The notes under the pieces are model-generated. The model saw only the letters and a program-made list of their open reading frames with translations, was not told the DNA's origin and made no database searches. Of a stretch of DNA of 62,053 bases, positions 19,052 through 41,723 are shown piece by piece. The DNA is from an uncultured Bacillota bacterium. Lineage in GTDB: Bacteria; Bacillota_I; Bacilli_A; RF39; UBA660. Numbering within the stretch: the first letter of the stretch is position 1; every line of letters starts with the position of its first letter. Made by a program: the position numbers and the translations under genes. The stretch covers positions 1 to 62,053 of the forward strand of contig CAMOYT010000003.1 of the NCBI GenBank assembly GCA_946630315.1, written 5' to 3'.

Positions 19052-19185
19052 CGTTTGTGGGGTTACTAGTTGGCAATTACCTTTAACTTTTAAAAACTTT
19101 TTCAAATAATGAATCCTTATACCAAACTTTATCCAACTAAATCCTAATAAACAATAAAAACAGAAGTTTACTTCTGCTTTTTTTT
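19052..19185 (+). ncRNA. candidate ~134-nt small RNA (promoter-to-terminator unit without an ORF)
   Basis: Bounded by the consensus promoter at 19017-19045 and the hairpin/T8 terminator at 19161-19185. The only ATG gives a 12-codon ORF without an SD. The 3' end overlaps the last 18 nt of the minus-strand lipoprotein gene. I recognise no known RNA family. Confidence 0.3.
19156..19185. terminator. bidirectional intrinsic terminator (end of the giant-protein/ATPase operon)
   Basis: A5, CAGAAG-TTTA-CTTCTG hairpin (19161-19176), then C and T8. On the minus strand the A-run supplies the T-tract directly after the lipoprotein gene stop (19168). Confidence 0.7.
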
Positions 19186-19989
19186 GTTTCTAAATATAAA
19201 AGTAAATAAAATAACTAATAAAACAACTGCTAATATTACAATTATATAACTACCATAATTTGTTTCTTTAAAAGAAAAATTAATATCATTAATACCATTA
19301 TTCTTTAAATTCCAAATTAATTCATTACCTTTTACTTTTGATGCATCACTATCTATTAAATGATTAACTTTTACTCTAAAATGAAGATCATTCATAGCAT
19401 TATACTTCTTCGATAATTCTTCACTAGATAAAGGATTACTACTAAGTGCATTCTCAATTTCAATAGAAGAAGCACTATGACAATCTCCTCTTTCTAAAGT
19501 ATCATTCTCACCTACATTAATAACACTACCATCTTCACATAAAAACTGCATAGTATCAGAAGAATTAATATCAGAATTAATATTTAAATCAGTAGTATCA
19601 AACTTAAATTTAGCAACATAAGTATTAGAAAAAAATCCCCTCTTTACTTGAAAGATTTCTTCTGGCTTTTTATCTTTTAAACTAGTAATAGAAAATATAA
19701 CCTCATCACTAGAACTAACTTTATCAATATTATTTATTTTATAATCGATTGAAACACCATGATATTTATCATCATTATAATCCTTAATTTTATATCCAAA
19801 ATCTTTCATATCATTAATCTGATCATCAGTAAAAACATGATATTCATCAAGTTCATTAATAACACCATAATCAATATGAATATTCATATTCTTAAATGAA
19901 TTAATTGATACTGTTCCATCAAATTTAACACAGCCAGAACATAATAAGCTAATTATTCCAATAATGATAATCTTATGATAATTTTTCAC
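19168..19989 (-). CDS. lipoprotein with additional C-terminal TM anchor, unknown function (last gene of ATPase operon)
   Basis: MKNYHKIIIIGIISLLCSGC lipobox. C-terminal YIIVILAVVLLVILFTFIF followed by RNKKKQK. AGGTGA SD. Starts 4 nt after the preceding gene. Confidence 0.75.
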   Translation of the reverse strand: MKNYHKIIIIGIISLLCSGCVKFDGTVSINSFKNMNIHIDYGVINELDEYHVFTDDQINDMKDFGYKIKDYNDDKYHGVSIDYKINNIDKVSSSDEVIFSITSLKDKKPEEIFQVKRGFFSNTYVAKFKFDTTDLNINSDINSSDTMQFLCEDGSVINVGENDTLERGDCHSASSIEIENALSSNPLSSEELSKKYNAMNDLHFRVKVNHLIDSDASKVKGNELIWNLKNNGINDINFSFKETNYGSYIIVILAVVLLVILFTFIFRNKKKQK

Positions 19990-19993
19990 ATAA

Positions 19994-20507
19994 TCACCTA
20001 CTCTTGTTCTTTACATATTTATTTGAAGAAATAATTGAGAAAAATCTTCTAAAAAATATATAAGTAGCATATAAGAAAATAAATAAACACAATAATATAT
20101 ATAACAATACTACATACCAATAATTACCTACTTCAATTAAATAGTTATAAAAAATACTTTTAGAATATAATAACACATAAATAACACCTATATTAAATAT
20201 ATCTATAAAAAACTTAATAAAATAAATATTAATAAGATTAAACAACAACATAGGTATAATCATTAATAAAATATTAAAATAAGAGAATTCATTTATAAAA
20301 ATAGAAACTACTATTAAATAATAATATAGAAATAAAAAAGATAGAGATAATATATCCTTATTATTTAATCCCATAAAGAATCCATAAAAAGACACTTTTT
20401 TATCATCAATAGTTTTTTTACCTATCCAAAAGAAAATTAATAATAAAACTATAAATATAGGAAAACAATAAACATAAGGTAATAAACTTTTTACATCAAA
20501 GAAATAA

Positions 20508-20518
<11 letters not shown>
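19994..20518 (-). CDS. polytopic (~5 TM) membrane protein, unknown function, translationally coupled to the epsilon-like gene
   Basis: Start set at the ATG (MITDYFF) 6 nt after GGAG, overlapping the epsilon-like stop by 11 nt. Extremely Phe/Ile/Leu/Tyr-rich. No membrane-embedded Arg of the AtpB type is evident. Confidence 0.7.
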
Positions 20519-22902
<2,384 letters not shown>

Positions 22903-22920
22903 TAAATCACCTATATTTAA

Positions 22921-24414
22921 CTACAATATTTCACTAGTATCAGTAGCTGATTGATCAGGTACTTGATTATTGTCTATAGGAGTAGTCACAACCTTTTGAT
23001 CTTCTGAAGCTGCTTTCTGCCTATATTGCTCAATTAATGTAGAAAATTTAGCTATTATTTGCTCATGAGTTAATGGAGAATACTTATATTGTTGTAAAGC
23101 ATTAAGTATTTCCCTACCTTCAAACAACTTAGTTCGAAGTTCTGCACTCATATCATCCTCGTTAGCAAGCTCATAAACATCCCTTGTCTCCAAATAAGAA
23201 AGTAGAGTTTGTCTTATACCTGCACCAAGTACCCTAATTTCTGGTGTTTGTACAGAACCACCTAAACGTGATACTGATAATCCATAATTAATAGCAGGCT
23301 TCTCACCTTTAACAAACGCATCATGTGATAATACTATTTGACCATCAGTAATAGAAATAATATTTGTAGAAATATAGTCTGTAATATCTCCACTCTTTGT
23401 CTCCATCACAGGAAGAATAGTTATACTTCCACCATCTTTATGTTGACATCCACGTTCAAGTAATCTTGAATGAAAATAAAATATATCAGCTGGATAAGCA
23501 TCTCTACCAGGTGCCTTACCAGACATCAAACTTATTTGACGATAAGCATCTGCATGCTTCTTTAAATCATCTAATACAACTAAAACATCATATCTTTGTT
23601 TCATATATAAATTAGCAACTCCTAAAGCATAATAAGGAGTAAGTGTAAGTGCAGATGGTAAATCATCATAAAATGCTGCTACTATAATTGTATAGTTAAT
23701 AGCATTCTTCTTAATTAAATCATAATAAATCTCTTTAACTTCCCTCTTAGTCTTACCTATAGCAACATAAATACATACCATGTTTTTATTAACTTGATTT
23801 GCAATAGTATCTAAACATATTTGTGTTTTTCCTGTTTTCTTATCACCAATAATTAATTGTCTTTGACCTTTCCCAATAGGATAAATCAAATCAATTCCAG
23901 CAATACCTGTTTCTAGTGGTCTATTAACACTAGTTCTATCCATTATAGGTACATTTTCTTGCTCTATTGGAACTTTAATAGTATTAGAAAACTTCTCATT
24001 TGTTAATCTATCATTACCGAACATATCTATTACACGACCAAAAGACTCGTAAGAAAACTCTCCTTCGAGCAAATCATTAGTCTGATAAACACTATCACCT
24101 ATTTTGATGTTATCTGTCTTTTTTAAAACAGCAATACTAACTCTATTAGGTTTCAAAGCTACAACATAACCAATACCTTTATTATCAATATTAACTACTT
24201 CATTAAAACTAACAGATTCTAATCCAACAACTTCAATTATATAGTCCTTAATAGAGACTACTTTACCAACACCATAAATATTATTCATTTTCTTAATATT
24301 ATTTACTTTATCTTCAACGACTCTAGTAACATATTGTTCATTAGCACTTAAATCATCGTTGTTAACACTAATAGCTGTCGGACTTTTCTTTTCTTGTTGA
24401 ATCTTCTCATCCAT
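22921..24414 (-). CDS. atpA: F1-ATPase alpha subunit homologue
   Basis: RQLIIGDKKTGKTQICLDTIANQ (Walker A), CIYVAIGKT, VLVVLDDLKKHADAYRQISL, PGRDAYPADIFYFHSRLLERG, GSITILPVMETKSGDITDYISTNIISITDGQIVL, and an Arg-finger box GLSVSRLGGSVQ. AAAGGGG SD. Confidence 0.9.
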   Translation of the reverse strand: MDEKIQQEKKSPTAISVNNDDLSANEQYVTRVVEDKVNNIKKMNNIYGVGKVVSIKDYIIEVVGLESVSFNEVVNIDNKGIGYVVALKPNRVSIAVLKKTDNIKIGDSVYQTNDLLEGEFSYESFGRVIDMFGNDRLTNEKFSNTIKVPIEQENVPIMDRTSVNRPLETGIAGIDLIYPIGKGQRQLIIGDKKTGKTQICLDTIANQVNKNMVCIYVAIGKTKREVKEIYYDLIKKNAINYTIIVAAFYDDLPSALTLTPYYALGVANLYMKQRYDVLVVLDDLKKHADAYRQISLMSGKAPGRDAYPADIFYFHSRLLERGCQHKDGGSITILPVMETKSGDITDYISTNIISITDGQIVLSHDAFVKGEKPAINYGLSVSRLGGSVQTPEIRVLGAGIRQTLLSYLETRDVYELANEDDMSAELRTKLFEGREILNALQQYKYSPLTHEQIIAKFSTLIEQYRQKAASEDQKVVTTPIDNNQVPDQSATDTSEIL

Positions 24415-24439: not shown

Positions 24440-25174
24440 TCAACTTAAACTATAATCATATAAAACATTTAAATAAACAATTTTTAAACCTTTAAATATA
24501 TCTTTAGAATAAATAGTCTTTATCCTAGAATCAATTTTATCATAATTCTTTTTCTTGTTACCAACATATATATATATAGTTGGATCACATTTACCAATTT
24601 CATAATCTAAGAAATTACAAAAATCTTCTATATCAAAAGACTCTTTTCCAGAATAAAATTCCATAAAAACATCTTCATTAATCAATCTTAAATCATTTAA
24701 CATCTTTTTCAATAAATCTTCATCATCATTAACAATGATATTATAAATACCAATACTATCTATATATTTTTTCATTTCTTTAAGGCTATTATATCTTTCA
24801 CTATCTAAGTCATTAGAAACATAATATTCAATAAAATATTTTATTAACTTAATATCATTAAATGAAAACTTTTCATCAATAATCTTCATCATTTTAAATA
24901 AGTCTTTAATTTCATAATTAACTTTTTTATCTAGATATATTACAGGAAGTTCATTACTGCCATTACTTTCATTTGAATCATTATTCTTTTCTTGTTTTGT
25001 ATCCCCTATATTTTCTTCTTTTCGATTTATACTATCAGTATACTCTTGTGCTTTATGTATAAAGTAAACTTTACTCTTCTTATTAATATCACTTACTTCT
25101 TTCTTCAAAAGAAAGAATAAGATGACAATCATTAAAGCTAAAGCTACTAATACAATTACTAATGTAAAATCCAT
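24440..25174 (-). CDS. peripheral-stalk candidate: b-like N-terminal TM fused to a delta/OSCP-like C-terminus (tentative)
   Basis: Sits in the atpF-atpH slot. Single N-terminal TM (LVIVLVALALMIVILFFLL), a charged helical region, and a C-terminal IYSKDIFKGLKIVYLNVLYDYSL faintly like the delta C-terminus (xLIGGxxVxxGDxVxDxS). The homology call is weak. Confidence 0.45.
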   Translation of the reverse strand: MDFTLVIVLVALALMIVILFFLLKKEVSDINKKSKVYFIHKAQEYTDSINRKEENIGDTKQEKNNDSNESNGSNELPVIYLDKKVNYEIKDLFKMMKIIDEKFSFNDIKLIKYFIEYYVSNDLDSERYNSLKEMKKYIDSIGIYNIIVNDDEDLLKKMLNDLRLINEDVFMEFYSGKESFDIEDFCNFLDYEIGKCDPTIYIYVGNKKKNYDKIDSRIKTIYSKDIFKGLKIVYLNVLYDYSLS

Positions 25175-25436: not shown

Positions 25437-26864
25437 TTAACTAACAAATCTAAAACTGCAATCCAATGATACACTATTACCATTATATACCAAATTTTCT
25501 AATTTTAAAGTATTAACACTTCCAAGTCTACTATATGATAATGTACCATTATAACCACTATTTGATGAAGCAGTATTCATATTAACATCTTGTGATGAAG
25601 AAGAAGCTCCATCAGTATATAAATGAATTATTCCAGAATCAAACTTATATTCTGAACTAATCTTTACATTATAATCTAGCTTATTATTAGATACTCTTAA
25701 TACTGATACTTTACAAGAAGGTGCCTTAGTCTTAACATTAACAACATCATCAATCACTTCATCATTTGAACCAACTAATTTATATCCAAAAGACAAAGTA
25801 TAATTATGATCAATTAATAAATTTCTTAATACATAATTAGTCTCATTCTTATTTAAATAGTATCTACTAGTATTACCCTTATTATCATCTAAAACAACAA
25901 ATATATTTTGATACTCATTATTAGAATCAACAACAGTATAATTAATAGTAATAGTAGTTATAGAAGATGATACACTTTTTAAAGCCAAATACTTACTAAA
26001 ATCATAATATATTTCACCTTTTTTAACACTAGTATCAGCTTTATCATTAACATCAGTAACAGACTTAGTTAAATTATTAACACTATATATAACATCTTTA
26101 ACATATTCATCATAATATCCTTCACTACTAGTCTCATCTTGTGGAGAACCACTTAGCGAAGTAATATTAGTTTTATTATCACTACTAGTAGCTTTATAAT
26201 TGTTAGTACTACCAATAATATTTTTTAAATTAATTTCCTTTTTACCATAAATTAGTTTCTCATTAGCAATATCAAAACTCATAGTAGTTCCCTTTAAAAC
26301 AAGAGGCTTAATAGTTTTAACATTAACTTCATTATTAGCAAAAGTAGCATTACCTTGCTTATCTAACTCTATTATTAAATAACCACTTGTTTTAACAGAA
26401 CCATCATTTGTTTTCATACTACTATCAACCATTAAATATTTACGATCTCTTAATTTGTAGAACTTTGTAGGAGAAGCTTTGACTATTTCAGTCATACCAC
26501 TAAGAGTAACAACTTCTCCATTGTTCTTAACTTGATATGCATTACCAAATAAATAGACTTTATAATCATTTTTACTATAAACCACAGGATTAGAACCAAT
26601 CTTTTCCTTAACCATTCTATTATTTTCTTTTTGATACCAATAATAATTACCATCAAATCTTTGTGCCAAATATGAATCATGTTCAACTTTTAAATAATTA
26701 TAATCATCATTATAGAAAGAACTACCCTCTTTAATAGGATATTTATTATCATCCAAACTATTAAATTTTAATATAAAGAATATAAATAATCCAACAATTA
26801 CAATAACTATTAAAGCAAACAATATAAATACTTTTGCATTATTAACATGAAATTTATTCTTCAT
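25437..26864 (-). CDS. single-pass membrane ectoprotein (475 aa) occupying the position of the a-subunit gene
   Basis: One N-terminal TM (VFILFALIVIVIVGLFIFFIL), then a beta-rich Asn/Ser/Tyr-rich ectodomain. GGGAGA SD. Ends 15 nt upstream of the c-like gene. No resemblance to AtpB. Confidence 0.75.
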   Translation of the reverse strand: MKNKFHVNNAKVFILFALIVIVIVGLFIFFILKFNSLDDNKYPIKEGSSFYNDDYNYLKVEHDSYLAQRFDGNYYWYQKENNRMVKEKIGSNPVVYSKNDYKVYLFGNAYQVKNNGEVVTLSGMTEIVKASPTKFYKLRDRKYLMVDSSMKTNDGSVKTSGYLIIELDKQGNATFANNEVNVKTIKPLVLKGTTMSFDIANEKLIYGKKEINLKNIIGSTNNYKATSSDNKTNITSLSGSPQDETSSEGYYDEYVKDVIYSVNNLTKSVTDVNDKADTSVKKGEIYYDFSKYLALKSVSSSITTITINYTVVDSNNEYQNIFVVLDDNKGNTSRYYLNKNETNYVLRNLLIDHNYTLSFGYKLVGSNDEVIDDVVNVKTKAPSCKVSVLRVSNNKLDYNVKISSEYKFDSGIIHLYTDGASSSSQDVNMNTASSNSGYNGTLSYSRLGSVNTLKLENLVYNGNSVSLDCSFRFVS

Positions 26865-29800: not shown

Positions 29801-32060
29801 TTAAAGTACTAGCCTCTAACTCAGTAGACCCAGAATTACCTCTTATTATTTGAGCATCTACAGAAAATGCTGCACTATGATCCTCTATTTGATTAAAGTC
29901 CATTTTAAATGGATTAGGATCCTCAGTCTTAATTATTACACTACCAATATAACAATTATCAATAGTTGGATTACCATCTTGTAAATCAACAGGTGCCATA
30001 ACAGAAAATGAATATGTTTCATTACTTCTTAAATTATTAATATCAAAAGGTATTCTTAAAGAACCACTTGATGTAAATGAATTAGAATTACCAACAGAAT
30101 CAGTATAAGTAATAGTTATAATAGAACCATTATTTATATCAATAGTATTTCCGTCATCAACTATTTCAATCTCTCCAGCAATTCTTTCAAAAGTAACATT
30201 ACTCTTTCTAAATTGAACAACTGGGAATATAACACCATCTAATTTCATTGGTTCACTAAATTCAGTAACATAATCATACTCTTTTTCATTATCGTTAAAT
30301 GTCATAACAACTCTAAAAACATATGGAACACCTCTAGATAGATTTTTACCATCAACTTTTACAGAAGCAGAAGCATTATTAGTTTTCTCAATTACTGTAA
30401 TCGGAGTTGCCCCAGCAGTTGTTACTGTTCTAGCATCATACACTTCATAACGGTAACTAATAATTCCACCATCGCTATCTTTCATATTGTTAATTTGCAT
30501 ATTAAATTTACTTTCTTTCTTATCGATTGCAAAAGAAAGTGAACCAATAGAAGGTTTTTTCTTCAAAGTTTCAAACTTCTTTATAATAGTAAATCCATCA
30601 GAAATTATTGAATCATTATATACAAAATCATGAACTCTAACTGAATATTCAGTATCATTAGCTAATTCTTTAAAAGCTACAATATTATTTTCATTACTTA
30701 ATGTTACATTTTGTGTTTTTAATATAGTACCATTTTTATCTTCTAATGTTACTACCACACTTGCAACATCAGAATATGAACTCTTTTTAATATTTAAATC
30801 TAGTTCATTAGTAGAAGCAAAATATTTTTCTAAAGTAACACCTATCGCATCAGTAACAAATGTTTTTTGAACAAAATCTTTATTATAAACAACATCATTT
30901 TTTCTATAATCTGAATTTAATACTAAAACATAATTAGTTTCAGGAGATAAAGCATCATTTTCAATATCAATAATACTAGATCCTGTATCATCTGTAGTTT
31001 CATAGACAATTTTATTAGTATTAGCTTCAATTATCTTAATATTAATATCTCCAGATAAAACACTATCAGAATCTACAATTTGTACTTCAGTACTTAATTT
31101 ATTAGCTGTTACATTTAAATTAATAATCTTAAATTCTGGATCTTTAATTCTAGAATTAGCTTCAATTATCTCTTCTGTACTCTCACTAGTATCAACAACT
31201 CCAGAACTCATAGATGGAAGTTCTTCTTTAGTATATTTCTTAGAATTATTTTTTGAACCATTAGAGTTTCCTTTTTCTCCATTATCAGTTTTAGGATTAG
31301 TAGAATCACCTGTGATAGACTTATTCTCTTCAGCATTTATTTGAATATTATCATCACTATTAACAGTGATTTCTCCTAAAGATAATTTTCTCTCTTTATC
31401 TTTATAAATATTTTTACCAGCAAAATCAATAATTACATTATCACCAAGTTCAATAGTAACATCATCACCAACACTTTGATATGCTACTCCTTGATTTTCA
31501 ATTCTAATAAGATTACCTTCTAAATAAGTAATTTCTAAATAAGTATTATCAAAAGTCTTCTCAACATCACCTATTTTTAATTTTAGCTTAGAGCCAACAA
31601 TCATAAATTTTTCATCAGTAATTTTAAGTAAAAAGTTACTAAAATCAAGTTTCTTATCTAAATAATTAATACGATAATTATTACCTTCTTTTACAAAAAT
31701 AGTACCAGAAAAAACATTATAATATTTATAATTTTCTTTATTTATGTCATTTAAATTAAGCACAACACTTTTTGCAAAAGTAGATATTGATCCATCACTA
31801 TAATGAATAAATGTCTCAGCAGGAATAATAGTAGTTTGATTATTCTTATTTTCAATAATTACCTCATTATCTACTTCTTTATACTTAGTTTCTTCGTCAA
31901 AAAATATTTTTTCAGTTGTAGCTTTACTATTTTTAGCAATAATATGCCCTTCAGCTTGAAATTCAGTATATTTTGAATTATAAGACATAATACCATATCC
32001 AAATAGTAGCGCTATTACCAATACAATTGGAACAATAATTAAAAAAGACTTCTTAAGCAT
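26883..32060 (-). CDS. giant (~1725 aa) N-terminally membrane-anchored surface protein made of tandem beta-sandwich (Ig/FN3-like) modules
   Basis: Start moved from 32126 to ATG 32060 (MLKKSFLIIVPIVLVIALLF), 9 nt after GGGAG. Single N-terminal TM, a Gly/Ser/Asn linker (NGEKGNSNGSKNNSKK), then more than ten ~90-110-aa beta-rich modules. No LPXTG. Confidence 0.85.
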   Translation of the reverse strand: MLKKSFLIIVPIVLVIALLFGYGIMSYNSKYTEFQAEGHIIAKNSKATTEKIFFDEETKYKEVDNEVIIENKNNQTTIIPAETFIHYSDGSISTFAKSVVLNLNDINKENYKYYNVFSGTIFVKEGNNYRINYLDKKLDFSNFLLKITDEKFMIVGSKLKLKIGDVEKTFDNTYLEITYLEGNLIRIENQGVAYQSVGDDVTIELGDNVIIDFAGKNIYKDKERKLSLGEITVNSDDNIQINAEENKSITGDSTNPKTDNGEKGNSNGSKNNSKKYTKEELPSMSSGVVDTSESTEEIIEANSRIKDPEFKIINLNVTANKLSTEVQIVDSDSVLSGDINIKIIEANTNKIVYETTDDTGSSIIDIENDALSPETNYVLVLNSDYRKNDVVYNKDFVQKTFVTDAIGVTLEKYFASTNELDLNIKKSSYSDVASVVVTLEDKNGTILKTQNVTLSNENNIVAFKELANDTEYSVRVHDFVYNDSIISDGFTIIKKFETLKKKPSIGSLSFAIDKKESKFNMQINNMKDSDGGIISYRYEVYDARTVTTAGATPITVIEKTNNASASVKVDGKNLSRGVPYVFRVVMTFNDNEKEYDYVTEFSEPMKLDGVIFPVVQFRKSNVTFERIAGEIEIVDDGNTIDINNGSIITITYTDSVGNSNSFTSSGSLRIPFDINNLRSNETYSFSVMAPVDLQDGNPTIDNCYIGSVIIKTEDPNPFKMDFNQIEDHSAAFSVDAQIIRGNSGSTELEASTLTGFNVNIYKGRNTSGTLVKSKKLVDKNIDPYSSELRDMYYDNVFRISPGFFDLKNSDFKSEYYTIEVTNAYDYTTFKNVLPINNNTITVKIENALPDMPNNTEDAVEVLPIKNGDRNEDHRDDLEDKTVVGYMFRASYNNEAKYATKITYKIHALDGTVIDTITYDVPKNGEINYSELFLGDGIASEVSDNSLRRGQPFYISYEIDLDINYDGKNDYVYPLTGVLKSKVIKPKRQEPIINFYPSKADNSSYTWKYTYVDVDHALYNSNITGYLDGASIGDNLLSLTKDYKSIKFSVNKSGLFSILGKYNYVNGDTPETEELCSQYYEGVNTIDFGKVAIYPEKNRVIFSFLDYQNKIDLFSKISSVKIDFTSGSKTVTIDKLSAKTGNITINYSEIEELMGKTITPTITVYYDNGTYGFENTGDYFALQRIRNNDNEPYYYYYFEDSKINTGDSANKSFIKYNFDIANKKLTINDKMFGYNNVYDINSSSFGINFNNSYVSPKKLIASAVEINGTNTFNFDTIIPGISMLDENNLTTIEPLINTVSFKLSTFGVDNQLKNDKIYVELYSILDESASEVKLEKTIPYNINDLNNKLTINGLLPKTDYYLRVYADVKKNDGSYVKEYLYDVNQQREGVNYYFKTIGSVGISDLTVKYSPASYDNRRLKVKYNLSQTVGFSYIRYNVYKVIDDNEKILLDKISNQKDKIFKQSMTSYISIPNDSGFVTGSTYLIEVQPILTTTVDGKSVDLELESTSTQYTFNTLYKPYFYISSKIRNGDLRYIVNVRDYHKSIVDGQFRVQILEDDIDVTPTAYQDTVFSIGNFNQEFVLPNIKTGSIYSINILYNADYSNDVNSITSQVYTHTSKVIMTSGVDLGTVYADTDISDNTRINLRFFDSTNLTDVKKIRYSIYNASDFSTDNQVAFTPKLITTPTTYYEFQLPDIISIDGVYYISIQFLDNNGKILAEDTIEYRLL

Positions 32061-32128
32061 ATCTATACACTCCCATACTATATTAATTTTACTACAAACA
32101 GAAAAAAAAGTACATAAAAAAGGCATTA

Positions 32129-35100
32129 TTAAATGCCTTTATTTAAATTTCTCTTAAGCAATAAGATTCCAGATATAATTCCCATAATTATTAAGCCAAC
32201 AATACCTAAAACACTAACCAATATAGTCCTATTTCTTTCTTGCTTACCAATATAATAATTATATAAAACAACATTGTTATCAATAGTGTTAGAAAGAGAA
32301 TTACTACTAATTTGATTAACTATATCACTAGTACCACTAGCATTAATATTATCAACCTTAAATACCTCATATTTTTTAGTTGTAGGATTATAAATATTAA
32401 TATAATTATCATCAATTACTTGCGTATCACTATTAACAGCATCAGAGCCTAATACCTTCTCAACACTCTTCTCTTTTAACTTACTCATAAGATTTAGAGT
32501 ATCTTGATACTGACGATGATTGCTATTAACAATTGCTGTATTATTGAAATAACTATTAAAGTAAGACATAACCGTAGAACCTGTATTCTTTAAATCTTGC
32601 TTTAGAATATCACCATTATGATAATTAAATATTACATAATCTCCATTAATATAATTTACAGCAATAATATCACTATCACCATACATATCAGTAGCAATTG
32701 ATTTAATATTTTTATTAATAAAACTCTTAGGTAAACTAATATCATCTTTTAAACTATAAAGTTTATTATCATCACCTAGATATATTAGATAACTCTTTCC
32801 ATTATCTTTACTAACTAAAGCGCTATCTTTAATATTTTCAAGAGAAGAATCAATCGCATCTATTTCTCCACTACTAACAAAAATCTGTTTAGATATAAAA
32901 TTACCATCTACTAGTGAATAATTATAATATGTATCAATAATACTATCACCATAAGTAAAACTATATAAAGGGACATTATCAACTAAAGATAAATTATCAA
33001 AATCATTCTCAATTAATTGCTTCTTATCAAGATTATAAATATTATGATTTTCTAATAATATTTTATCATTATAAATATTGATAGGTTTCTTACTATTATT
33101 AGTATTTTCAGTATTATTAACCAGTTTAACAACACGATAATTGATTGTATTATTACTAACTTTAGTAAGAGAAACTTTCTCATTACTAATGATTTTATCT
33201 CCATCTATATGATAATAATTATTATCAATAATAGAAGAAGTCTTTCTTAAATCATCAGCTTTATATTTTAAAGTTTTAGTATTAATTCCATCACTTAAAA
33301 CAATTTCAAAATCTGTATTAAAATCATAATAGAACGAATAAGATAATTGCTCAAGATTATAAGTAGTATCATTAATCCTAAATTTAATACCATCCATTAC
33401 TTTATCAAATTCAACATTAATCTTATTAACATCACTTGCATAAACATTTACTGTCGGTAAACTTGGTATAGAACTAGTCTGTTTACCAATTGATCCAGTA
33501 ATATTACCAAGGAAAACTGACTCCTCTGGCAATTCAAAATGCTGATAACCAAAACCATTCCAATCATATTTCAAGAATGGGAATTCACCGCTGTCCAACA
33601 TAGAATAATCAAAAGCTGTTGAGAAGAAAGGTTTATAAGTATCTTGCGACTTTAAAGAATTATATGTGATTTTAGTAACATTAGTAGGATAATTATAACT
33701 ACTAATAGAACTTCCATTATATGTTGAATTCTCATATACTTTAAGGGCTCGTAATGCTGCCGTATTGGCCGTTGGTGTAAATGTATCAGCATCTTTCGTA
33801 GACTCACCTATAAAGAATCTTGATTTATCAGATACACTAGCAACCACATCTGCAATAACCATATTATTATAGAAATGTCCATCAAATGGCAATTTATTAC
33901 TATTAGGTGCAATACTACTAGCATGAATTCCAGCTGAAGTAATAGAACTATTAGCAATTAAATTATCATAAATAATAATTTTATTTAATGCTGAAGTAGT
34001 ATTTATATTATCTAAATAACCAATAATACCTCCAGCAAAATCATTAGTAGCTCTAACAGTAGCATTAGTAATATTGTAGTACATTGTAGGATTAGTACTA
34101 GAATGATATCCAGCTAAACCACCAACATATTTTCTACCAGTTACTGTCGTATTATAGACATAATTTCTTTGTAAAGTAGCATTAGAAAGTTGTCCTACTA
34201 TACCACCTGTATTATTACCCAAATTTTCTATTTTAGAATTCCTAATTCCACAATATGCATGACTATAACTAGATGCAACACCTGTTATTCCACCTACTCT
34301 ATTAGATACATCGCCACTTCTAGTTCCATATACTTCAACATTATCGACATATGTATAAGTCAATTGATTAGAATTACCAAATGCTCCACCAATAGCATCA
34401 CCACTACCAGTAACTTTAGAATCACTAATAATTTGTCCACTTATATATGATGTATTAGCATTACCAGAAATACCTCCAACATTAGAGACTCCCTTTACAT
34501 CAACATTTTTTACTGTAGTATATGTAGCTGAACCATTTCCAAATACACCACCAATATAGTTACCAGTTCCAGTTACTATACAATCATCAACATTAAAATT
34601 AAACATTGTTGGATATGTTGTACCATCCTTAGACCCAACTAAGCCTCCAACATAACTTCTTCCCTTTACTTCAAGATCAACACCATCAACATGAGCAATA
34701 TCAAAATATCTACTTAAACCAATAAAACCACCAACATAATCACTTGTATTGCTACCAATTACCTTAACATGTTCAAGTTTTATTCTTTTAATATCCGGTG
34801 ATTGATTAAATGACACAATACCAGTACGACTAGCATTAGAAGCTATATCAATATTAGTAAAATTAATATCCGACATCGTTCCATTTAAGAATCTAATAAT
34901 ACCCGAATAAAGAGTTGAAGATTTACTATCAATAGTAATATGATCAAAATTAACATTGCTAATATTAGAAGCAACAGTATCAATCAAACCAACATGTCCA
35001 GAAGTAGCAGTAATATTAATATTTTTTAATGTATGCCCATCATCTGTACCTTCTAATCTATTAAAACTAACTCTTGTTTTTACATTAGTCTTTCCAGCAA

Positions 35101-38100
35101 AATCAATATCATTAACTAAACGATAATTTTCATAAACATCAGTATCTATCTTTTGCCAATCTTCAAACGTACCTATATCTTTATAAAAAGTCAATTCAAT
35201 TTTAGCTGATGGATTAATAGAAACATCCTTTTTACCATCATTATAAGTAATATTATCAATTAAATAACTATCATAATAACGCTCAGGAGTTCCATAAACT
35301 TCATAAATAGTTTCTCCATCACTCGTTACATTTTTATTAACTCTTCGTATATTAAATCCATCAATGTTTAAACCTTTAACCGTATAATTATCTGGATTTT
35401 GAATATAAATTTGAATAGTAGCATCACTAAATGACTTATCTATAATAATATCTTTTACTTTAAAATCTTTAGCATAAAATTCAATATCTTTTTGATTTGG
35501 TAATAACTTATTACTAGACAAATATTTTAATTTAGGCATTATATTCCTATTTTGACTATTAGACAATTTACTCAAATCAAATTGATTACCAAATTTAATT
35601 AAAGAATCATATGTAGAAGCAGATTTTAACTCTTCACTAGTTAAGAAAATGTCACCATTTGCCGAATTAATATTAAGACCATTAATCAATTGCTCATCCC
35701 ATGCATAGTTTGAATTAACAGCAATTCTATTTCCAACAGTCCTATTCATATTAATAGCATTTTTCGAAGTATATACGCCACCAAGAACTAGAGTATTATA
35801 AATATTGTCATTAGTAGAATATCCAACTACTCCTCCAACAGAATCTTGTTGTGTATATACATAAACATTAGAAATAACACGTTCAACATATCCAGAATTA
35901 TATCCAACTACTCCTCCAACTTCTTGTTGATTTGTATTAATAGTTCCTTGTACATAACTATCTCTAATAAATCCAGAATCATGTCTACCAACAAAACCAC
36001 CTATACCATAAGTAGAAGCTCCATATTTTATTTCCATATTTAAATCTTGAACATAACAATTTTCAACAATTGTATCTGCTGTTCTTCCAATAAATCCACC
36101 ATATCTACCATAGAATTTTACATTATTTTTATCCTTTTGATATATATGTACATTAGTTGCAGAAGAATTAGATATAAGCGTACTAGATGCCTCTCCAACA
36201 AGAGCACCTATATAAGTATCACTATCAGTAATATTTATATTTTTCAAATGAACATTATCAATAGTTGCATTACCAGACGCATATGCAATAAATCCACCTC
36301 TATAGCTTGGTCCATCTTTTGTATAATTTTCAACATATAAATTTTTAATAGTACCGCCAGACAAATTATTAATAAATGCTTTATTAGTTAATCTAACATT
36401 TTTAATAGTATGACCATTACCATCAAACTTTCCAGTAAACTTATCTATGTTATCAGAAAGATTACTAAAATCTAAATCAGTTTGTAACTTAAAGTTTTGT
36501 GTTGAATTACTATTAATAGTTCTAAAATCAGTAATACTATTAATATTTCTATACATTTCAACTGGAATAATACGATCTTTACTATTTTTATATTCTCTCT
36601 TATAAGATTTACCTGTTGATTCAACATAATATATATTATGTAAACTATAATTTGTAACAAAAGAATCAGGATCATGGAATCTAACTTTAACTTTAGATTT
36701 ACCATTTTCATTTACTTGATCCAACACATCTACTTGAATTCCATTATAAAAATCTAAATCATCTATTGTACTATATCCAATATTATCAAATATCAAAGTA
36801 GCTTCAACAGTCTCATCATCTTTTTCCACTCTATTTTCAATAGTTAAATAATCAATCTCTCCATCATCTTCTTTTGGAAGTTCAATATATTCTTGATTTG
36901 GCATAACATCTGGCCAAATAATATGTGGATAATATCCATACTTAACATAATTTTCAACATCAAAAGCATTATCTGCATTTAAAATATTTTGAAACTCTTC
37001 TTGTCTTAGAGTATTAGGAGCAATTTTATTAGAATAACTACCAGAATAAATATCTTTAGTAGCATAATAAAGATTAACAGCATTAACACCACCAGAGAAA
37101 AAGTTAACATCTCGAGCCGTATTTCTATAAGTACCACTAGAATTAGTATAAGCATTCCTAATAATAGTTCTACTAATAGATCCTGCAATATTACCAACTT
37201 CATTCTGGTATGATTCATTAGTAGATGACTCTGCTATATTAACATCAACTAAAGAATATATATTTGAAATATATGAATTAGCAGCAGTATAATAAGTAAG
37301 TGCTCCAACATATTTACTACCAAAAGATGGATTGTTATAAGTAGCATCAATTGCTTTTCCATATAAATAACCATTAGTAATAGTTCCATAATTCTCTAAG
37401 CAAACTAAAGAACCATATCTAACTACATCAAGAGAATCCTTACTATTAACAACAAAGTTTTTAATATTACCATAATTATATCTAATCATTAAAGTAACTA
37501 AAGTATTTCCCAAATGATTACTTTGTTCAAGAGTTGCCATAATATTTTCAATAGTACCATAATTATAATATGCTATCCCCTCAAAATAATCTCTAGCTGG
37601 ATATTCAAAATAAACATGTAAATCAATGTTCTTTAAAACAGCATTACTACCAAGTTTATAGAACAAATATTCAGAAGTTTTACCACTAGTAATATATGTA
37701 TCACGAATAATTTTATGACCTTGAAAATCAATAATTCCATTAAACTCTGTACCAATACTTCTATTAGTATTAGAAAAATCCAAATCATCTGAAACTAAAT
37801 AAAAACCAGAAGTATGAATTTGAAAAAACTCATCTACATTATGAATAGTTCTAATCTCATCATCAGAAGTAAACTCAAGAGTATCAATATCATAAAATCT
37901 CTTTTCAACATTTACCCCTACTACTTTTTTTCTAATACTTAGTTTAATCTTATATTCACTAGATGGCTCAATTTCATGTTTTGACATAGCATCAATAACT
38001 TGATAAGAATCATTAAAATCAAACTCAACTGTATCAATTAATTTATTATTTTTATAATATCTTAAAAAATAATGAAAATCATCTTCTTCAATTTCATGTT

Positions 38101-41008
38101 TCTTATCAGTTAAACTAGTAAAGAAAGATCCCATATAATTTGCTTTCGCTTTATAAGGAACATAACTAGTAGCACTACTACCTTCTTCAATCTGTAAATC
38201 CTTAATAACTATAGATGTTGTTTCATTTTCACCATCAACTTCTATAATATGAAAACTAATATATGGACTAGAAGCATTAACAACTACCGTCCTACTGTAT
38301 GAAATATAATCATCTGCTTTAATATTCTTAATTTGATCACTAGCAGAATAACTATTATTACTACCTCTTGGAGTTAAATAAACTGGTTTAGTAAACTTCT
38401 TATCTTTATACTTAATCTTAAAACTTACAGTAACAGTCTTACCAGCATATTCTGGTAAATAATAAGAATAAGTTCTATAACCATTTTTAGCTGATAGAGT
38501 AACTGTATTTTCAGTCTTATTAATCTTTCTACTACTTGGCTCTCTATTACCTCCAGTTTTCCACCTTCTAGTATTATCAATATCAAATATATTCTTACTA
38601 GTAATTTGTTTTAATAAAGTATCAACTTCAACATTACCACTTAATCCTTCTTCAGTAACTATATCTTCTTCTAATAAAACTTTATTACTAACAAACGAAT
38701 CATTAGAATAACCAGTATTGTATTCCTCTGCTATAAACTTAAAATTATATTTTGTATCTTTATCAAGTTTCTCTAAAGAAATATTTTCATAATCAGTATT
38801 AATATTCAATTCCTTATATAAAACAAGTACTCCAATACTATTTCTTACTTCAAGTAAAACTCTATTAGACTGAATAGCTTTATCAAAATCTTCAATTCTA
38901 GCATCAAAATTTATAACACTAGAAGTAACAAATCTATTAATAATATGAACATCAGAATCATACTTTATCGTCTTAATATTATTAACATTAGAATTAGTAG
39001 TAATATCAAAATTCTTACTACCTAATTCTACATTAGAAGATAATTCAAAATAATAAGTATGATTAGATAATAAACCTAATATCTCGAAAGGTAATGCTTC
39101 TCCTGCTTTTATTCTTTCTAAATCATTACCAGTTAAAAGAATAGTCTTTACATTTTTATTATCATCAGAGTCTTTAACAACAATTTTAATAGAAGATAAT
39201 AATTGTTTTAAAACAGTATTAGTATCATCTGAAATAGACACATTAAAACTAATCTTATCAACATCAGATTCAATATTATCAAAATTTAATTTTACATAAC
39301 CTAAAGTAGTTATAGGCTCTGTTGTAAATTTTCCTTCAACAATTGTTTTGCCTTTAATAATTCCATTTCCGTCTTCTAAATCATAATCACCAATTAAAGA
39401 AACAGAATAAACTTCATTAGGTGATAAATTATCTAAAGTAAAAGTTAAATCACTAACTTTTCCCTCTTTAATAATGTTTTTATCATTGTCATAAACAACA
39501 TACTTCATATTAGCAATATTAACATTATCTCTATTAGTTAAATCAAATGATAAAGTAGCCTTATCAATACCTCTACTCTTAACAGACAAATAACCACTAG
39601 GTGCTTGCTTTATAGTTTTAAAACTATAATTAACAGCATTCTTCTTCAATAAATTACCAGCTACATCGTAAAATTCAACATCTACATTATATCTAGTATT
39701 ACTAGAAAGAGATTTAGCTGTAGAATAATTTTGACTTTCTAGTTTTAATAACTTAGTAATATATCCAGATGATAGCTGATAACTATTATTACCAATCTTT
39801 AATATAACTTTCTTAATACCTTTTAAAACTTCATCACTACTCTTATTATTTAATTTAATTCCCTGAAATACTGCATAATTAGAATAAGGAACAATCTTAT
39901 CTATACTAAAATTAACATTTTCTAGACCAGATATATCTTTAGTAGAAATCTTAAATCTAGTAAATTCACTTTTTACTTCTTGTCCTTTTTCATTTTTATA
40001 ATGATATACCCCTACTACATCATAATCAGTATCTGGATATAATCCCTTAACTTCAATTGTATCTGAAACTACAAAAGTTTTTCTAACAACCAAATTCTTT
40101 CCTTTATAGAACTCAAAAGTAGGATATTTAACTATTCTACCAGTAGGATCACTAATCTCCAATTTACCACTAACAGAATAAATTCTAGCACTTTGACTTC
40201 CAAAAGTAACAGTAGGTTTAACATATTCGACACCATCTACAGTAGCCGGTTTATTTATATTATCTTCTTCTTCCTCTTCTTCTTGAACAGCAACAGGAGG
40301 AACTTCAGTACCTGCATTTTCCTCATCTTTTATAAATAAGCCCAATCTCTCAAGAAAATCTAAATAAGCAAGTTCTTTTCCATCAAAAAAGATAAAAGAA
40401 CTATTATCCAATCCTTTTATTTCTTTATAGAAATACTTACCACCACTCATATAATAATATCTTAAATTTTCTTCAGAAAAAGTAATAAAAGAATTAATTG
40501 GTATAACATATTTCTTACTAGTATTTGTCTTAATAGACATTTCACTTAAATTAACATATACCCCATTATTTAATTCAACAAAATTATAAGTAAGATTATC
40601 TGCTCTCTCATAATCATTTTCATTAAATAATTTATTATCACTAATTAAAGTATTAGAATATGAATTCGTCTTTCTATACTTACTATCAATAAGTGAAAAT
40701 TCATCAGATAATATTAATAATGTTTTACTATCTTTTGAAACAATAGGATAATTTAAATTAACATTAGTTTTCTTTTTATCACCAATAAAATATTTACCTC
40801 TACCTTTATATAAAGCATCATAATATTTTACTTTAGAATAATCAATTTTATCTCTTTCACTTTCTCCATTTATCAAGTTCTTTGTTATATTATCAGAAGT
40901 AAAAACATATCCATCCATATCAAATGTACGAATATTTTTGTAACTATTAAAATAAATAGATCCAACTATAACTAATAAAATTATAATTAATAAAACTACC
41001 TTTTTCAT
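32129..41008 (-). CDS. giant (2959 aa) surface protein with N- and C-terminal TM anchors, Ig-like arrays and GLUG-type beta-helix repeats
   Basis: N-terminal TM (VVLLIIILLVIVGSIYF), an EEEEEED linker and Ig-like modules. Three F(N/T)G(x)(F/I)DG(N)GH(x)I modules are each followed by GLUG-like rungs (IGGFVGR, VGGVVGY, VGGLVGS, IGGVFGN, VGGISGN, VGGITGV, VGGLAGY, AGGIIGY). C-terminal TM VLGIVGLIIMGIISGILLL then KRNLNKGI. Confidence 0.9.
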   Translation of the reverse strand: MKKVVLLIIILLVIVGSIYFNSYKNIRTFDMDGYVFTSDNITKNLINGESERDKIDYSKVKYYDALYKGRGKYFIGDKKKTNVNLNYPIVSKDSKTLLILSDEFSLIDSKYRKTNSYSNTLISDNKLFNENDYERADNLTYNFVELNNGVYVNLSEMSIKTNTSKKYVIPINSFITFSEENLRYYYMSGGKYFYKEIKGLDNSSFIFFDGKELAYLDFLERLGLFIKDEENAGTEVPPVAVQEEEEEEDNINKPATVDGVEYVKPTVTFGSQSARIYSVSGKLEISDPTGRIVKYPTFEFYKGKNLVVRKTFVVSDTIEVKGLYPDTDYDVVGVYHYKNEKGQEVKSEFTRFKISTKDISGLENVNFSIDKIVPYSNYAVFQGIKLNNKSSDEVLKGIKKVILKIGNNSYQLSSGYITKLLKLESQNYSTAKSLSSNTRYNVDVEFYDVAGNLLKKNAVNYSFKTIKQAPSGYLSVKSRGIDKATLSFDLTNRDNVNIANMKYVVYDNDKNIIKEGKVSDLTFTLDNLSPNEVYSVSLIGDYDLEDGNGIIKGKTIVEGKFTTEPITTLGYVKLNFDNIESDVDKISFNVSISDDTNTVLKQLLSSIKIVVKDSDDNKNVKTILLTGNDLERIKAGEALPFEILGLLSNHTYYFELSSNVELGSKNFDITTNSNVNNIKTIKYDSDVHIINRFVTSSVINFDARIEDFDKAIQSNRVLLEVRNSIGVLVLYKELNINTDYENISLEKLDKDTKYNFKFIAEEYNTGYSNDSFVSNKVLLEEDIVTEEGLSGNVEVDTLLKQITSKNIFDIDNTRRWKTGGNREPSSRKINKTENTVTLSAKNGYRTYSYYLPEYAGKTVTVSFKIKYKDKKFTKPVYLTPRGSNNSYSASDQIKNIKADDYISYSRTVVVNASSPYISFHIIEVDGENETTSIVIKDLQIEEGSSATSYVPYKAKANYMGSFFTSLTDKKHEIEEDDFHYFLRYYKNNKLIDTVEFDFNDSYQVIDAMSKHEIEPSSEYKIKLSIRKKVVGVNVEKRFYDIDTLEFTSDDEIRTIHNVDEFFQIHTSGFYLVSDDLDFSNTNRSIGTEFNGIIDFQGHKIIRDTYITSGKTSEYLFYKLGSNAVLKNIDLHVYFEYPARDYFEGIAYYNYGTIENIMATLEQSNHLGNTLVTLMIRYNYGNIKNFVVNSKDSLDVVRYGSLVCLENYGTITNGYLYGKAIDATYNNPSFGSKYVGALTYYTAANSYISNIYSLVDVNIAESSTNESYQNEVGNIAGSISRTIIRNAYTNSSGTYRNTARDVNFFSGGVNAVNLYYATKDIYSGSYSNKIAPNTLRQEEFQNILNADNAFDVENYVKYGYYPHIIWPDVMPNQEYIELPKEDDGEIDYLTIENRVEKDDETVEATLIFDNIGYSTIDDLDFYNGIQVDVLDQVNENGKSKVKVRFHDPDSFVTNYSLHNIYYVESTGKSYKREYKNSKDRIIPVEMYRNINSITDFRTINSNSTQNFKLQTDLDFSNLSDNIDKFTGKFDGNGHTIKNVRLTNKAFINNLSGGTIKNLYVENYTKDGPSYRGGFIAYASGNATIDNVHLKNINITDSDTYIGALVGEASSTLISNSSATNVHIYQKDKNNVKFYGRYGGFIGRTADTIVENCYVQDLNMEIKYGASTYGIGGFVGRHDSGFIRDSYVQGTINTNQQEVGGVVGYNSGYVERVISNVYVYTQQDSVGGVVGYSTNDNIYNTLVLGGVYTSKNAINMNRTVGNRIAVNSNYAWDEQLINGLNINSANGDIFLTSEELKSASTYDSLIKFGNQFDLSKLSNSQNRNIMPKLKYLSSNKLLPNQKDIEFYAKDFKVKDIIIDKSFSDATIQIYIQNPDNYTVKGLNIDGFNIRRVNKNVTSDGETIYEVYGTPERYYDSYLIDNITYNDGKKDVSINPSAKIELTFYKDIGTFEDWQKIDTDVYENYRLVNDIDFAGKTNVKTRVSFNRLEGTDDGHTLKNINITATSGHVGLIDTVASNISNVNFDHITIDSKSSTLYSGIIRFLNGTMSDINFTNIDIASNASRTGIVSFNQSPDIKRIKLEHVKVIGSNTSDYVGGFIGLSRYFDIAHVDGVDLEVKGRSYVGGLVGSKDGTTYPTMFNFNVDDCIVTGTGNYIGGVFGNGSATYTTVKNVDVKGVSNVGGISGNANTSYISGQIISDSKVTGSGDAIGGAFGNSNQLTYTYVDNVEVYGTRSGDVSNRVGGITGVASSYSHAYCGIRNSKIENLGNNTGGIVGQLSNATLQRNYVYNTTVTGRKYVGGLAGYHSSTNPTMYYNITNATVRATNDFAGGIIGYLDNINTTSALNKIIIYDNLIANSSITSAGIHASSIAPNSNKLPFDGHFYNNMVIADVVASVSDKSRFFIGESTKDADTFTPTANTAALRALKVYENSTYNGSSISSYNYPTNVTKITYNSLKSQDTYKPFFSTAFDYSMLDSGEFPFLKYDWNGFGYQHFELPEESVFLGNITGSIGKQTSSIPSLPTVNVYASDVNKINVEFDKVMDGIKFRINDTTYNLEQLSYSFYYDFNTDFEIVLSDGINTKTLKYKADDLRKTSSIIDNNYYHIDGDKIISNEKVSLTKVSNNTINYRVVKLVNNTENTNNSKKPINIYNDKILLENHNIYNLDKKQLIENDFDNLSLVDNVPLYSFTYGDSIIDTYYNYSLVDGNFISKQIFVSSGEIDAIDSSLENIKDSALVSKDNGKSYLIYLGDDNKLYSLKDDISLPKSFINKNIKSIATDMYGDSDIIAVNYINGDYVIFNYHNGDILKQDLKNTGSTVMSYFNSYFNNTAIVNSNHRQYQDTLNLMSKLKEKSVEKVLGSDAVNSDTQVIDDNYINIYNPTTKKYEVFKVDNINASGTSDIVNQISSNSLSNTIDNNVVLYNYYIGKQERNRTILVSVLGIVGLIIMGIISGILLLKRNLNKGI

Positions 41009-41012
41009 TAAA

Positions 41013-41723
41013 TCACTTCAACTTCTTTAAATAATCAAAATTCTTCATCAATAATTTTTCCTTATTATTTATAATAATTAAATCAGAGCTAACATTAAGT
41101 TTAAACTCATCATTAGTAACAAAAACATCTCCTGTAACATTTTCATAATTATTCATCTTACCAGAAGCATAATCATAAATAAATAATTCATTAGTATCAT
41201 ATACATAATTTACAAAACTAAATGGAGTTATTTTAACACTCATTCCATTAAAATTAACTACACAATTATTAATAAAAATATAATAATCACTTCCATCAAA
41301 TAAGAATCCTTTATTTGCTTTATAATTTAAATTCTTATTAGTTAAATAATAATCATCATATTTTTCACTTAACACAGTAAAATATGGCACCTTCTTTTGT
41401 ACACCATTTGAATAAGAAACAAAACTATAATTAACAGGAATTATTATTTTTTTAGCCTTACTATAATAAATAGGTTCCCCATATAATTTAGTCTTCTTAT
41501 TATTAATTTTTAGATTTGAAATATTGCCATCATGATTTATAGTAAGATTACCATTTATATCAAATCTCTCTCTTCCAAAATAAATATATAGATTTTCTTT
41601 CTTCTCTACATATGTATTTAATTCTTTTCTAGCTAACATGACATTAACAATAACTATAATAATAACAAATAATAAAACAAGTCCTACAACAATTGATGCT
41701 ATCAACTTCTTCTTATTCTTCAT
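41013..41723 (-). CDS. single-pass membrane protein (236 aa), first gene of the giant-protein/ATPase operon
   Basis: N-terminal TM (LIASIVVGLVLLFVIIIVIVNVML) plus a ~200-aa beta-rich ectodomain. AAGGATG SD. Its stop lies 4 nt before the 2959-aa gene. Confidence 0.7.
   Translation of the reverse strand: MKNKKKLIASIVVGLVLLFVIIIVIVNVMLARKELNTYVEKKENLYIYFGRERFDINGNLTINHDGNISNLKINNKKTKLYGEPIYYSKAKKIIIPVNYSFVSYSNGVQKKVPYFTVLSEKYDDYYLTNKNLNYKANKGFLFDGSDYYIFINNCVVNFNGMSVKITPFSFVNYVYDTNELFIYDYASGKMNNYENVTGDVFVTNDEFKLNVSSDLIIINNKEKLLMKNFDYLKKLK

Follow-up and report, generated by a model that had tools for sequence, protein, structure and literature searches.

What does an F-type ATPase do when its ion path appears to be lost and its genes run in line with those of giant surface proteins? 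This question is raised by a locus on contig CAMOYT010000003.1 of an uncultured Bacillota bacterium (assembly GCA_946630315.1), of which we analysed a stretch of 62,053 nucleotides, hereafter the window. A first-pass annotation of the window had described a row of twelve open reading frames (ORFs) on the minus strand, all read in one direction between 41723 and 19168, in which neighbouring ORFs overlap by up to 23 nt or stand up to 68 nt apart, and the ORF coordinates agree with that description. The genes of the ATPase part had been given the canonical atpE-(F/H)-A-G-D-C order, which is borne out by the Pfam and NCBIfam profiles with which we identified the ATPase subunits (alpha, gamma, beta and c). 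In line with them are genes for surface proteins of 236 and 475 amino acids (aa), for two giants that we call GiantA and GiantB, and for a polytopic membrane protein of 178 aa (Table 1). Judged from its sequences, this module is an undescribed and widespread lineage of F-type-derived ATPases unable to couple to an ion gradient.

Ion path, F1 head and stalk

The c-like protein was compared with canonical c by hhalign, using profiles built from the clade (the module and its relatives, described below) and from the canonical operons of control loci, and is matched at a probability of 96.6%. In 10 of 10 c-like orthologues, the helix-2 glutamate is replaced in its column by S, T, A or V. Nor does any of the ten aligned sequences have an acidic residue elsewhere in its membrane-embedded part. 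The glutamate is present in all 15 canonical c subunits of the control loci. No ATP-synt_A or atpB model matched any of the ORFs scanned in the 62-kb window. The 178-aa protein was considered as a degenerate a subunit and rejected, as its family shows no similarity to the canonical a profile (hhalign P=0.17) and has no invariant charged residue.

To our knowledge, no F-type enzyme transports ions without a carboxylate on c. As the site on c is itself gone, ion coupling could not be restored by an a subunit from another part of the genome. With a c subunit devoid of its carboxylate and no a subunit in the window, the ATPase is predicted not to be a proton- or sodium-coupled synthase and, on this prediction, cannot be chemiosmotic. 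This agrees with the first-pass statement that the proton path is gone.

The loss of the carboxylate is accompanied by strong conservation of the rest of the protein. The c-like subunit is the best-conserved small gene of the cluster, with 56-90% identity within the clade across loci of 25 to 58% GC. The ten orthologues agree without exception in the N-terminal Met-Glu, the loop AEAVGRNPE and the FNP of a C-terminal FNPL motif. This conservation together with the invariant motifs argues against decay. AEAVGRNPE corresponds to the predicted cytoplasmic loop facing gamma and epsilon, so that the motif by which these subunits would contact c is intact, and by analogy with canonical c the C-terminus would face outward.

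Alpha and beta keep their catalytic motifs and the F1 head looks catalytically competent, as the first-pass annotation had proposed. All the motifs quoted there are found in the translations: GDKKTGKT and the arginine-finger box LSVSRLGG in alpha, DELSAED and a further catalytic motif in beta. The pair thus has the Walker A motif, catalytic glutamate and arginine finger of a canonical F1. The Walker A motif and the arginine finger of alpha are invariant across 12 clade members. Gamma is matched to canonical gamma with an hhalign probability of 99.1%. Alpha aligns from position 5 of the 507-position PRK13343 atpA profile and may retain an H1-type N-terminal segment.

Two further proteins of the ATPase part, of 83 and 244 aa, had no match in Pfam and PDB sequence searches. 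Compared with canonical epsilon, the 83-aa protein gave an hhalign probability of 58% (P=1e-4, 96 columns), all off-target pairs having P of at least 0.1. The 244-aa protein aligned with canonical delta over 29 C-terminal columns (25%, P=8e-4). It starts with a transmembrane (TM) helix followed by basic residues, which suggests that it is oriented N-out and C-in as in subunit b. In its AlphaFold2 model (27-sequence alignment, pLDDT 73), residues 2-52 form the TM segment and a long helix, residues 53-103 a low-confidence linker, and the remainder a domain of six helices and four strands. The linker is predicted to be disordered and varies in length among orthologues; subunit b is represented in the module solely by the TM helix and short helix of this protein. 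A Foldseek search of the model against 350,542 PDB chains returned ATP synthase chains as the first 16 matches, each of them weak (E 0.04-1), and the chains that we recognised among them are delta/OSCP subunits, including mycobacterial b-delta fusions. The earlier labels of epsilon-like and b/delta-like have thus gained weak profile and fold support but no sequence-level identification with Pfam or PDB, and we consider them probable rather than proven.

Conserved neighbourhood and relation to known ATPases

Relatives of the module were reached via alpha homologues (L005, L006 and L007), via collection scans (L008, which is the metagenome-assembled genome (MAG) UBA1778, from genome contigs, and L009, L010 and L011 from metagenomes) and, independently, via distant 475-aa homologues with 32-35% identity (L089, L090 and a contig of GCA_016648615.1). 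The scan of genome contigs yielded one locus, UBA1778. In the metagenome scan the clade accounted for 3 of 80 loci, the rest being canonical AtpA, and these 77 canonical loci were reused as controls. The module was found in ten further loci, with GC contents of 25-58% and alpha identity down to 55%, and by blastp 11 of the 12 window genes have syntenic orthologues in L005-L011. The linkage to giants reported by the first-pass annotation is therefore a conserved one.

By product, the usual order of the genes is GiantA-475-c-244-alpha-gamma-beta-83-178-236-GiantB, found in L006, L007, L008, L010, L011, L089 and GCA_016648615.1. L090, reached like the last two via the 475-aa protein, agrees with this order. 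The genes for GiantA and the 475-aa protein lie immediately upstream of c wherever the locus extends that far. GiantB orthologues were found in seven loci and are 3' of the ATPase genes in L006, L007, L008, L010 and L011; in these same five loci, an orthologue of the 236-aa gene lies immediately upstream of GiantB, and L089 has an equivalent gene. In the window and its closest relatives, L005 and L009, the 236-GiantB pair stands upstream of GiantA instead, and the gene orders indicate that it has moved there in the lineage of the window. The 273-aa lipoprotein gene, counted by the first-pass annotation as twelfth member of the operon, has no orthologue by blastp in the seven related loci compared, hence it is not a core gene and falls outside the conserved module. 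Genes flanking the module vary by locus and include infB and rbfA, dinB, or genes of mobile elements.

Clustered at 50% identity, the 244-aa family numbers 303 representatives (E up to 1e-3), and the 475-aa family has 221 clusters, which indicates that the module is widespread. It occurs in standard-code Firmicutes. For alpha we found more than 120 clusters of close homologues with 61-80% identity, all of them metagenomic or from 'Bacilli bacterium' MAGs and annotated 'F0F1 ATP synthase subunit alpha'.

In L089 the module adjoins genes (1-3294) for a Mob_Pre relaxase, TnpV and a TIR-domain protein. This hints that the module can sit in or beside mobile DNA.

Are the twelve genes of the window transcribed together? 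The first-pass annotation had proposed a single 22.5-kb transcription unit with no terminator until 19156-19185. The second of these claims is not borne out, as a 9-bp hairpin with a U-tract lies in the 68-nt gap between GiantB and GiantA, and in view of this terminator-like hairpin the first is unsupported by sequence. Downstream of the hairpin follow a -10-like box (TATAGT), a ribosome-binding site (GGGAG) and the ATG at 32060, taken as the start of GiantA from the gene calls and this ribosome-binding site. Promoter-like matches give no information here, shuffled sequence containing at least as many. A plain 22.5-kb operon is less likely than two adjacent units or a single unit with an attenuator. 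Equivalent and stronger hairpins after GiantB in L005 (-15.4 kcal/mol) and L009 (-13.3 kcal/mol) fit the rearrangement of the 236-GiantB pair. GiantB, normally the last gene, seems to have moved with its terminator, GiantA having kept its own upstream region.

How far is this ATPase from those already described? Alpha identities are 55-76% within the clade versus 36-42% against the 77 canonical loci, and beta identities 60-80% versus 39-47%. A neighbour-joining tree rooted on beta was built from ten clade alphas and 40 sampled canonical alphas. The clade sits on a long stem, is monophyletic in all 50 bootstraps and falls outside the canonical alphas, themselves monophyletic in 42 of 50; long-branch attraction may have contributed to this placement. 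On this tree alpha is not nested in the sampled ordinary AtpA, which supports the first-pass interpretation. Alpha scores below both atpA equivalog cut-offs (TIGR00962, 405 bits for a cut-off of 484; NF009884, 435 for 554) and beta marginally above that of atpD (TIGR01039, 478 for 463); the canonical controls score 817-856 on TIGR00962 and 819-841 on TIGR01039. The best PDB sequence matches of alpha and beta are ordinary bacterial F1 subunits, and the G1 alpha and beta of Mycoplasma mobile rank lower.

Reuse of rotary ATPases as surface-protein motors has been described from mycoplasmas only (PMC3369863, PMC12994834). The Type 2 enzyme drives gliding and Type 3 is needed for MIB-MIP function (PMC11864180, PMC12994834), Type 3 (the MSC_0618/0619 family; MMCAP2_0575-0581) being required for this antibody-cleavage system (PMC3369863, PMC12994834). 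Clusters of both types consist of seven genes, for a 12-TM protein, a small cytoplasmic protein, gamma, epsilon, a large 2-TM protein, alpha and beta; they are without c subunit and peripheral stalk, and their alpha is without the N-terminal helix (PMC3369863, PMC12994834). The Gli giants of M. mobile are encoded outside its seven-gene Type 2 cluster MMOB1610-1670 (PMC12994834). In the proposal of Toyonaga et al. 2025, the G1-ATPase is a rotating enzyme and the co-option of F1Fo followed its contact with an adhesin (PMC11864180). A 2026 survey restricted to Mollicutes found no homologues in Acholeplasma, Spiroplasma, Mesoplasma and Entomoplasma.

Membership in Type 2 or Type 3 was rejected, since this locus scores below the NCBIfam cut-offs and canonical F1 controls score higher. 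For Type 2, alpha reaches 388 bits on the MMOB1660 model (NF045863; cut-off 600, canonical controls 451-471) and beta 393 bits on the MMOB1670 model (NF045858; cut-off 850, controls 520-546). For Type 3, alpha reaches 313 bits on the MSC_0619 model (NF045936; cut-off 520, control 338) and beta 409 bits on the MSC_0618 model (NF045934; cut-off 570, controls 435-451), and no Type 3 accessory-protein model matched in the module. These scores suggest that the clade and the mycoplasma types lie at similar distances from ordinary F1, and that the clade is not especially close to those types. Also rejected was membership in the N-ATPases (360 versus 750 bits on TIGR03324, 415 versus 752 on TIGR03305), of whose operon features the window has neither an a subunit nor an ion site, and in the FliI/SctN export ATPases (175-222 versus 379.5 bits on TIGR01026; the module has a distinct alpha/beta pair). 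The clade reads as a third, undescribed lineage of F1-like motor with an inert c-ring.

Comparison with the known systems locates what the module shares with each. With Type 3, it shares a head of F1 origin (alpha, beta, gamma and, probably, epsilon) whose genes stand with those of membrane proteins foreign to Fo, the absence of an a subunit, and genetic linkage to surface proteins thought to be energised by the ATPase. Unlike Type 3, which has no c or stalk homologue, it keeps the c-(b/delta)-alpha-gamma-beta-epsilon order, an inert c and a delta-like stalk; Type 3 alpha is without the N-terminal H1 helix, whereas the alpha of the module aligns almost from the start of the atpA profile. Its accessory proteins have no detectable homology to those of Type 3 and its host is a standard-code organism outside the mycoplasmas. 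The M. mobile Type 2/G1-ATPase (PDB 9io5; Gli123, Gli349 and Gli521) is likewise an F1-like rotary ATPase proposed to power giant anchored surface proteins, and some clade members have N-terminal extensions of beta (L008, L011) or alpha reminiscent of the extended G1 beta. In contrast to Type 2, whose cluster is without c-ring and peripheral-stalk genes, the giants here are inside the cluster.

Canonical F1Fo (the closest solved structures being those of Bacillus PS3, Caldalkalibacillus and Fusobacterium) resembles the module in gene order, catalytic motifs, gamma and a c hairpin with GxGxGxG and R(N/Q)PE motifs. It differs in that the c of the module is without carboxylate, no a subunit is found, epsilon is without its C-terminal helices, b and delta are one short protein with a disordered linker, and alpha and beta form a separate clade. 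The mycobacterial b-delta fusion (PDB 8jr0, 7njk chain d) also combines a membrane anchor and a delta-like domain in one polypeptide; however, it has ~440 aa, a long helical b part and belongs to a proton-coupled enzyme, whereas in the 244-aa protein the helix is short and the linker variable and predicted to be disordered.

Several clade members carry additions to the F1 subunits. Alpha homologues range from 425 to 845 aa, for example 662 aa in P0020 and 679 aa in P0021, and the 845-aa homologue P0086 carries an extra PF16187 match; in the one case looked at, L005, the extra length is an N-terminal extension. These additions could serve lineage-specific docking of other proteins, like the extended beta in G1-ATPase. 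The N-terminal extension of beta in L011 and L008 measures 80-100 aa (proteins of 530 and 551 aa). In L010 beta is found in two ORFs of 256 and 194 aa (12219-13587), owing either to an error of assembly or to a frameshift that has made it a pseudogene. L011 (58% GC) has a 257-aa gene between gamma and beta (10830-11603), and from its N-terminal KGGVGKTS motif alone we take the product to be ParA/MinD-like.

Proposed energisation of surface proteins and alternative functions

The surface proteins were characterised by a hydropathy scan, from which all TM topologies are predicted. It supports the anchoring that had been proposed for the giants at first pass, with GiantA anchored N-terminally and GiantB at both ends; one N-terminal TM helix each is also predicted for the 236-aa and 475-aa proteins. 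The eight GiantA orthologues are collinear, measure 1713-1818 aa and are conserved roughly evenly over their full length, and FN3-type matches are present in five of the eight. Such a fixed length and even conservation would be expected of a component with a structural or mechanical role more than of an adhesin free to diversify. No tandem repeats of note were found in the giants, and no homology to other families was detected beyond the FN3-like and GLUG matches.

An AlphaFold model of the 475-aa protein (54-sequence alignment, pLDDT 84) consists of a TM helix, an all-beta domain (~40-215), a disordered linker and two FN3-like domains. Foldseek matches the FN3-like part to tandem FN3 (E ~1e-7); no fold was assigned to the N-terminal beta domain, the search being dominated by FN3 matches. 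Profile comparison links the ectoproteins to each other. The membrane-proximal regions of GiantA and GiantB match with an hhalign probability of 90% (P=1.6e-6), and the beta domain of the 475-aa protein matches the N-terminal region of GiantA with 89% (P=2.3e-6). The 236-aa protein has weaker links to other ectoproteins (32-53%), the highest being that of its ectodomain to the N-terminal region of GiantB. This suggests that the ectoproteins carry a set of paralogous membrane-proximal modules. The 273-aa protein weakly resembles the C-terminal half of the 475-aa protein, where the FN3-like domains lie (25% over 160 aa, E=1e-3), and its gene may be a local partial duplicate.

What, then, does the ATPase drive? 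Our preferred reading, which we hold with moderate confidence, is that the F1-like ATPase mechanically energises the surface proteins. We infer that the products assemble into one complex, that the ring rotates and that the giants are its load. The cytoplasmic part would consist of the alpha3beta3 head, the gamma shaft, the short epsilon-like protein and the delta/OSCP-like domain tethered by the b-like helix. In the membrane would be the inert c-ring, the 4-5-TM protein and the TM anchors of the 236-aa protein, the 475-aa protein, GiantA and GiantB, with no a subunit. Working in hydrolysis mode only, ATP turnover in F1 would turn gamma, epsilon and the c-ring against the tethered alpha3beta3. 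Because no ion can be moved, the assembly of anchored ectoproteins would take up the torque, either within the membrane or immediately above it. The giants would be moved, tensioned or reset, for adhesion, gliding-type motility or ligand handling. [quoted passage not shown] We speculate that the 50-residue linker of the stalk could act as a rope-like tether, enough for a motor turning in one direction, and that GiantB, anchored at both ends, might be strained between the rotor and stator sides.

Several observations count against this reading. The N-terminal signal-anchor-type sequences of the giants could be handled by the Sec pathway, and a motor is therefore not obviously needed for their export. 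The delta-like and epsilon-like assignments rest on low scores and are weak. The predicted stalk has a 50-residue low-confidence linker in place of a rigid b-dimer coiled coil, which makes its function as a stator uncertain. In the lineage of the window, the terminator-like hairpin parts GiantB from the rest of the module. Finally, the sequence does not favour motility over any other output.

The module encodes its presumed loads in the same cluster and keeps an ion-dead c-ring and a delta-like tether. With these features it would be far easier to study, and far more telling about evolution, where the question is how F1 torque came to do work outside the cell. The first-pass annotation knew of no description of such an arrangement, and likewise no account was found in the searchable literature.

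A bolder form of mechanical energisation is possible though doubtful, namely that the module is a third F1-derived surface-motor class outside the mycoplasmas, either independently evolved or ancestral-like, in which the ion-blind c-ring would serve in the membrane as a mechanical rotor and nothing else, its ATP-driven rotation acting through a collar of paralogous membrane-proximal domains on giant FN3/beta-helix 'legs'. If this were true, the module would be a new prokaryotic motility or adhesion engine and a living intermediate between true F1Fo and the c-less F1-like X0 machines of mycoplasmas.

Alternatively, the head could energise the insertion, secretion or surface assembly of the giants rather than their later movement. 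The FliI/FliJ ATPase complex supports export in type III systems. FliI/SctN are distantly homologous to alpha and beta (~175-224 bits with NCBIfam models), the partners of the ATPase are very large membrane-anchored proteins, and the 178-aa polytopic protein could be part of a membrane gate. However, the module keeps a full rotary set (gamma, the epsilon-like and delta-like proteins and a c-ring whose loop towards gamma and epsilon is conserved) that export would not need. Neither Pfam nor NCBIfam detected an export-gate homologue in the window, and the giants carry ordinary N-terminal sequences of the signal-anchor type. A dedicated export or assembly ATPase is, on this evidence, unlikely.

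Equally unlikely is the idea that the ATPase has some other output, for example the 178-aa protein alone or another membrane process, and that the giants are co-inherited with it on a mobile surface-protein island. The mobile-element and TIR genes beside the L089 copy, the wide GC range of the host genomes (25-58%), which is compatible with horizontal spread as a block, and the terminator-like hairpin that sets GiantB apart all speak for such an arrangement. Against it stand the positions of GiantA and the 475-aa gene, directly 5' of c in every locus reaching that far, and of the 236-GiantB pair, which stays attached even after rearrangement; the length and full-length conservation of GiantA are also unlike those of a freely diversifying adhesin.

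That this is an ordinary divergent ATP synthase or ion pump with an a subunit encoded elsewhere and the giants as accidental neighbours is highly improbable: beta just passes its TIGR01039 cut-off, the homologues are publicly annotated as F0F1 alpha subunits and the gene order is canonical, yet the carboxylate is gone in 10 of 10 c-like orthologues, alpha falls short of both atpA cut-offs with alpha and beta alike scoring far below the controls, the clade lies outside the sampled canonical alphas, and the giants have stayed linked to the ATPase in genomes that diverge widely. 'F0F1 ATP synthase' labels would mislead metabolic reconstructions of these uncultured gut bacteria.

Gene list and flanking genes

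The window has a GC content of ~26% and its genes lie almost all on the minus strand. Housekeeping genes flank the locus (scpA, scpB, two nrdD, nrdG, dut and a pseudouridine synthase gene), which places it on the chromosome. For beta, the gene calls offer an alternative start, an ATG at 22117 giving 453 aa.

Table 1. Genes and terminator-like hairpins of the ATPase-giant locus, listed in the direction of transcription
Feature	Coordinates	Strand	Remarks
236-aa signal-anchored ectoprotein	41013..41723	-	N-terminal TM helix; always paired with GiantB
GiantB, 2959 aa	32129..41008	-	N- and C-terminal TM helices; FN3-like and GLUG regions
Terminator-like hairpin and U-tract	32119..32140	-	Overlaps GiantB stop codon; -10.3 kcal/mol
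GiantA, 1725 aa	26883..32060	-	N-terminal anchor; mostly FN3-like domains
475-aa signal-anchored ectoprotein	25437..26864	-	TM helix, all-beta domain, linker, two FN3-like domains
c-like subunit, 81 aa	25176..25421	-	PF00137, 30.8 bits
244-aa candidate stalk protein	24440..25174	-	b-like TM helix and delta/OSCP-like domain (probable)
alpha-like subunit, 497 aa	22921..24414	-	PF00006, 238 bits
gamma-like subunit, 259 aa	22123..22902	-	PF00231, 75 bits
beta-like catalytic subunit, 456 aa from GTG	20756..22126	-	PF00006, 230 bits
83-aa epsilon-like protein	20508..20759	-	atpC position; beta-sandwich part only, without C-terminal helices
178-aa protein, 4-5 TM helices	19994..20530	-	Position conserved, sequence poorly so; not a-like
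273-aa lipoprotein-like protein	19168..19989	-	C-terminal TM helix; lineage-specific, outside conserved module
Terminal intrinsic-terminator-like hairpin	19156..19181	-	-14.8 kcal/mol

A second surface-protein cluster lies directly downstream on the minus strand (5598-18867). Its products include a 443-aa signal peptidase I (13947-15278; TIGR02228, 64.9 bits), which is of the SipW/archaeal type and has a long extension at its C-terminus, a 543-aa protein and two proteins with N-terminal anchors (17156-18148 and 18163-18867). A third giant of 2778 aa (5598-13934), for which no family match was found, is encoded there as well. This signal-peptidase/giant cluster was not seen beside the ATPase module in the other loci with visible flanks.

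On the upstream side, a 626-aa surface protein with PARCEL repeats (42342-44222; TIGR02167, 93.8 bits) partly matches the mycoplasma Mbov_0838 lipoprotein family. The two nrdD genes are paralogous anaerobic ribonucleotide reductase genes of 776 and 709 aa, lying near nrdG and dut at 54728-61229. At 829 aa, the protein encoded at 50634-53123 is of unusually great size for a pilin; its N-terminus carries a cleavage/methylation motif of the prepilin type.

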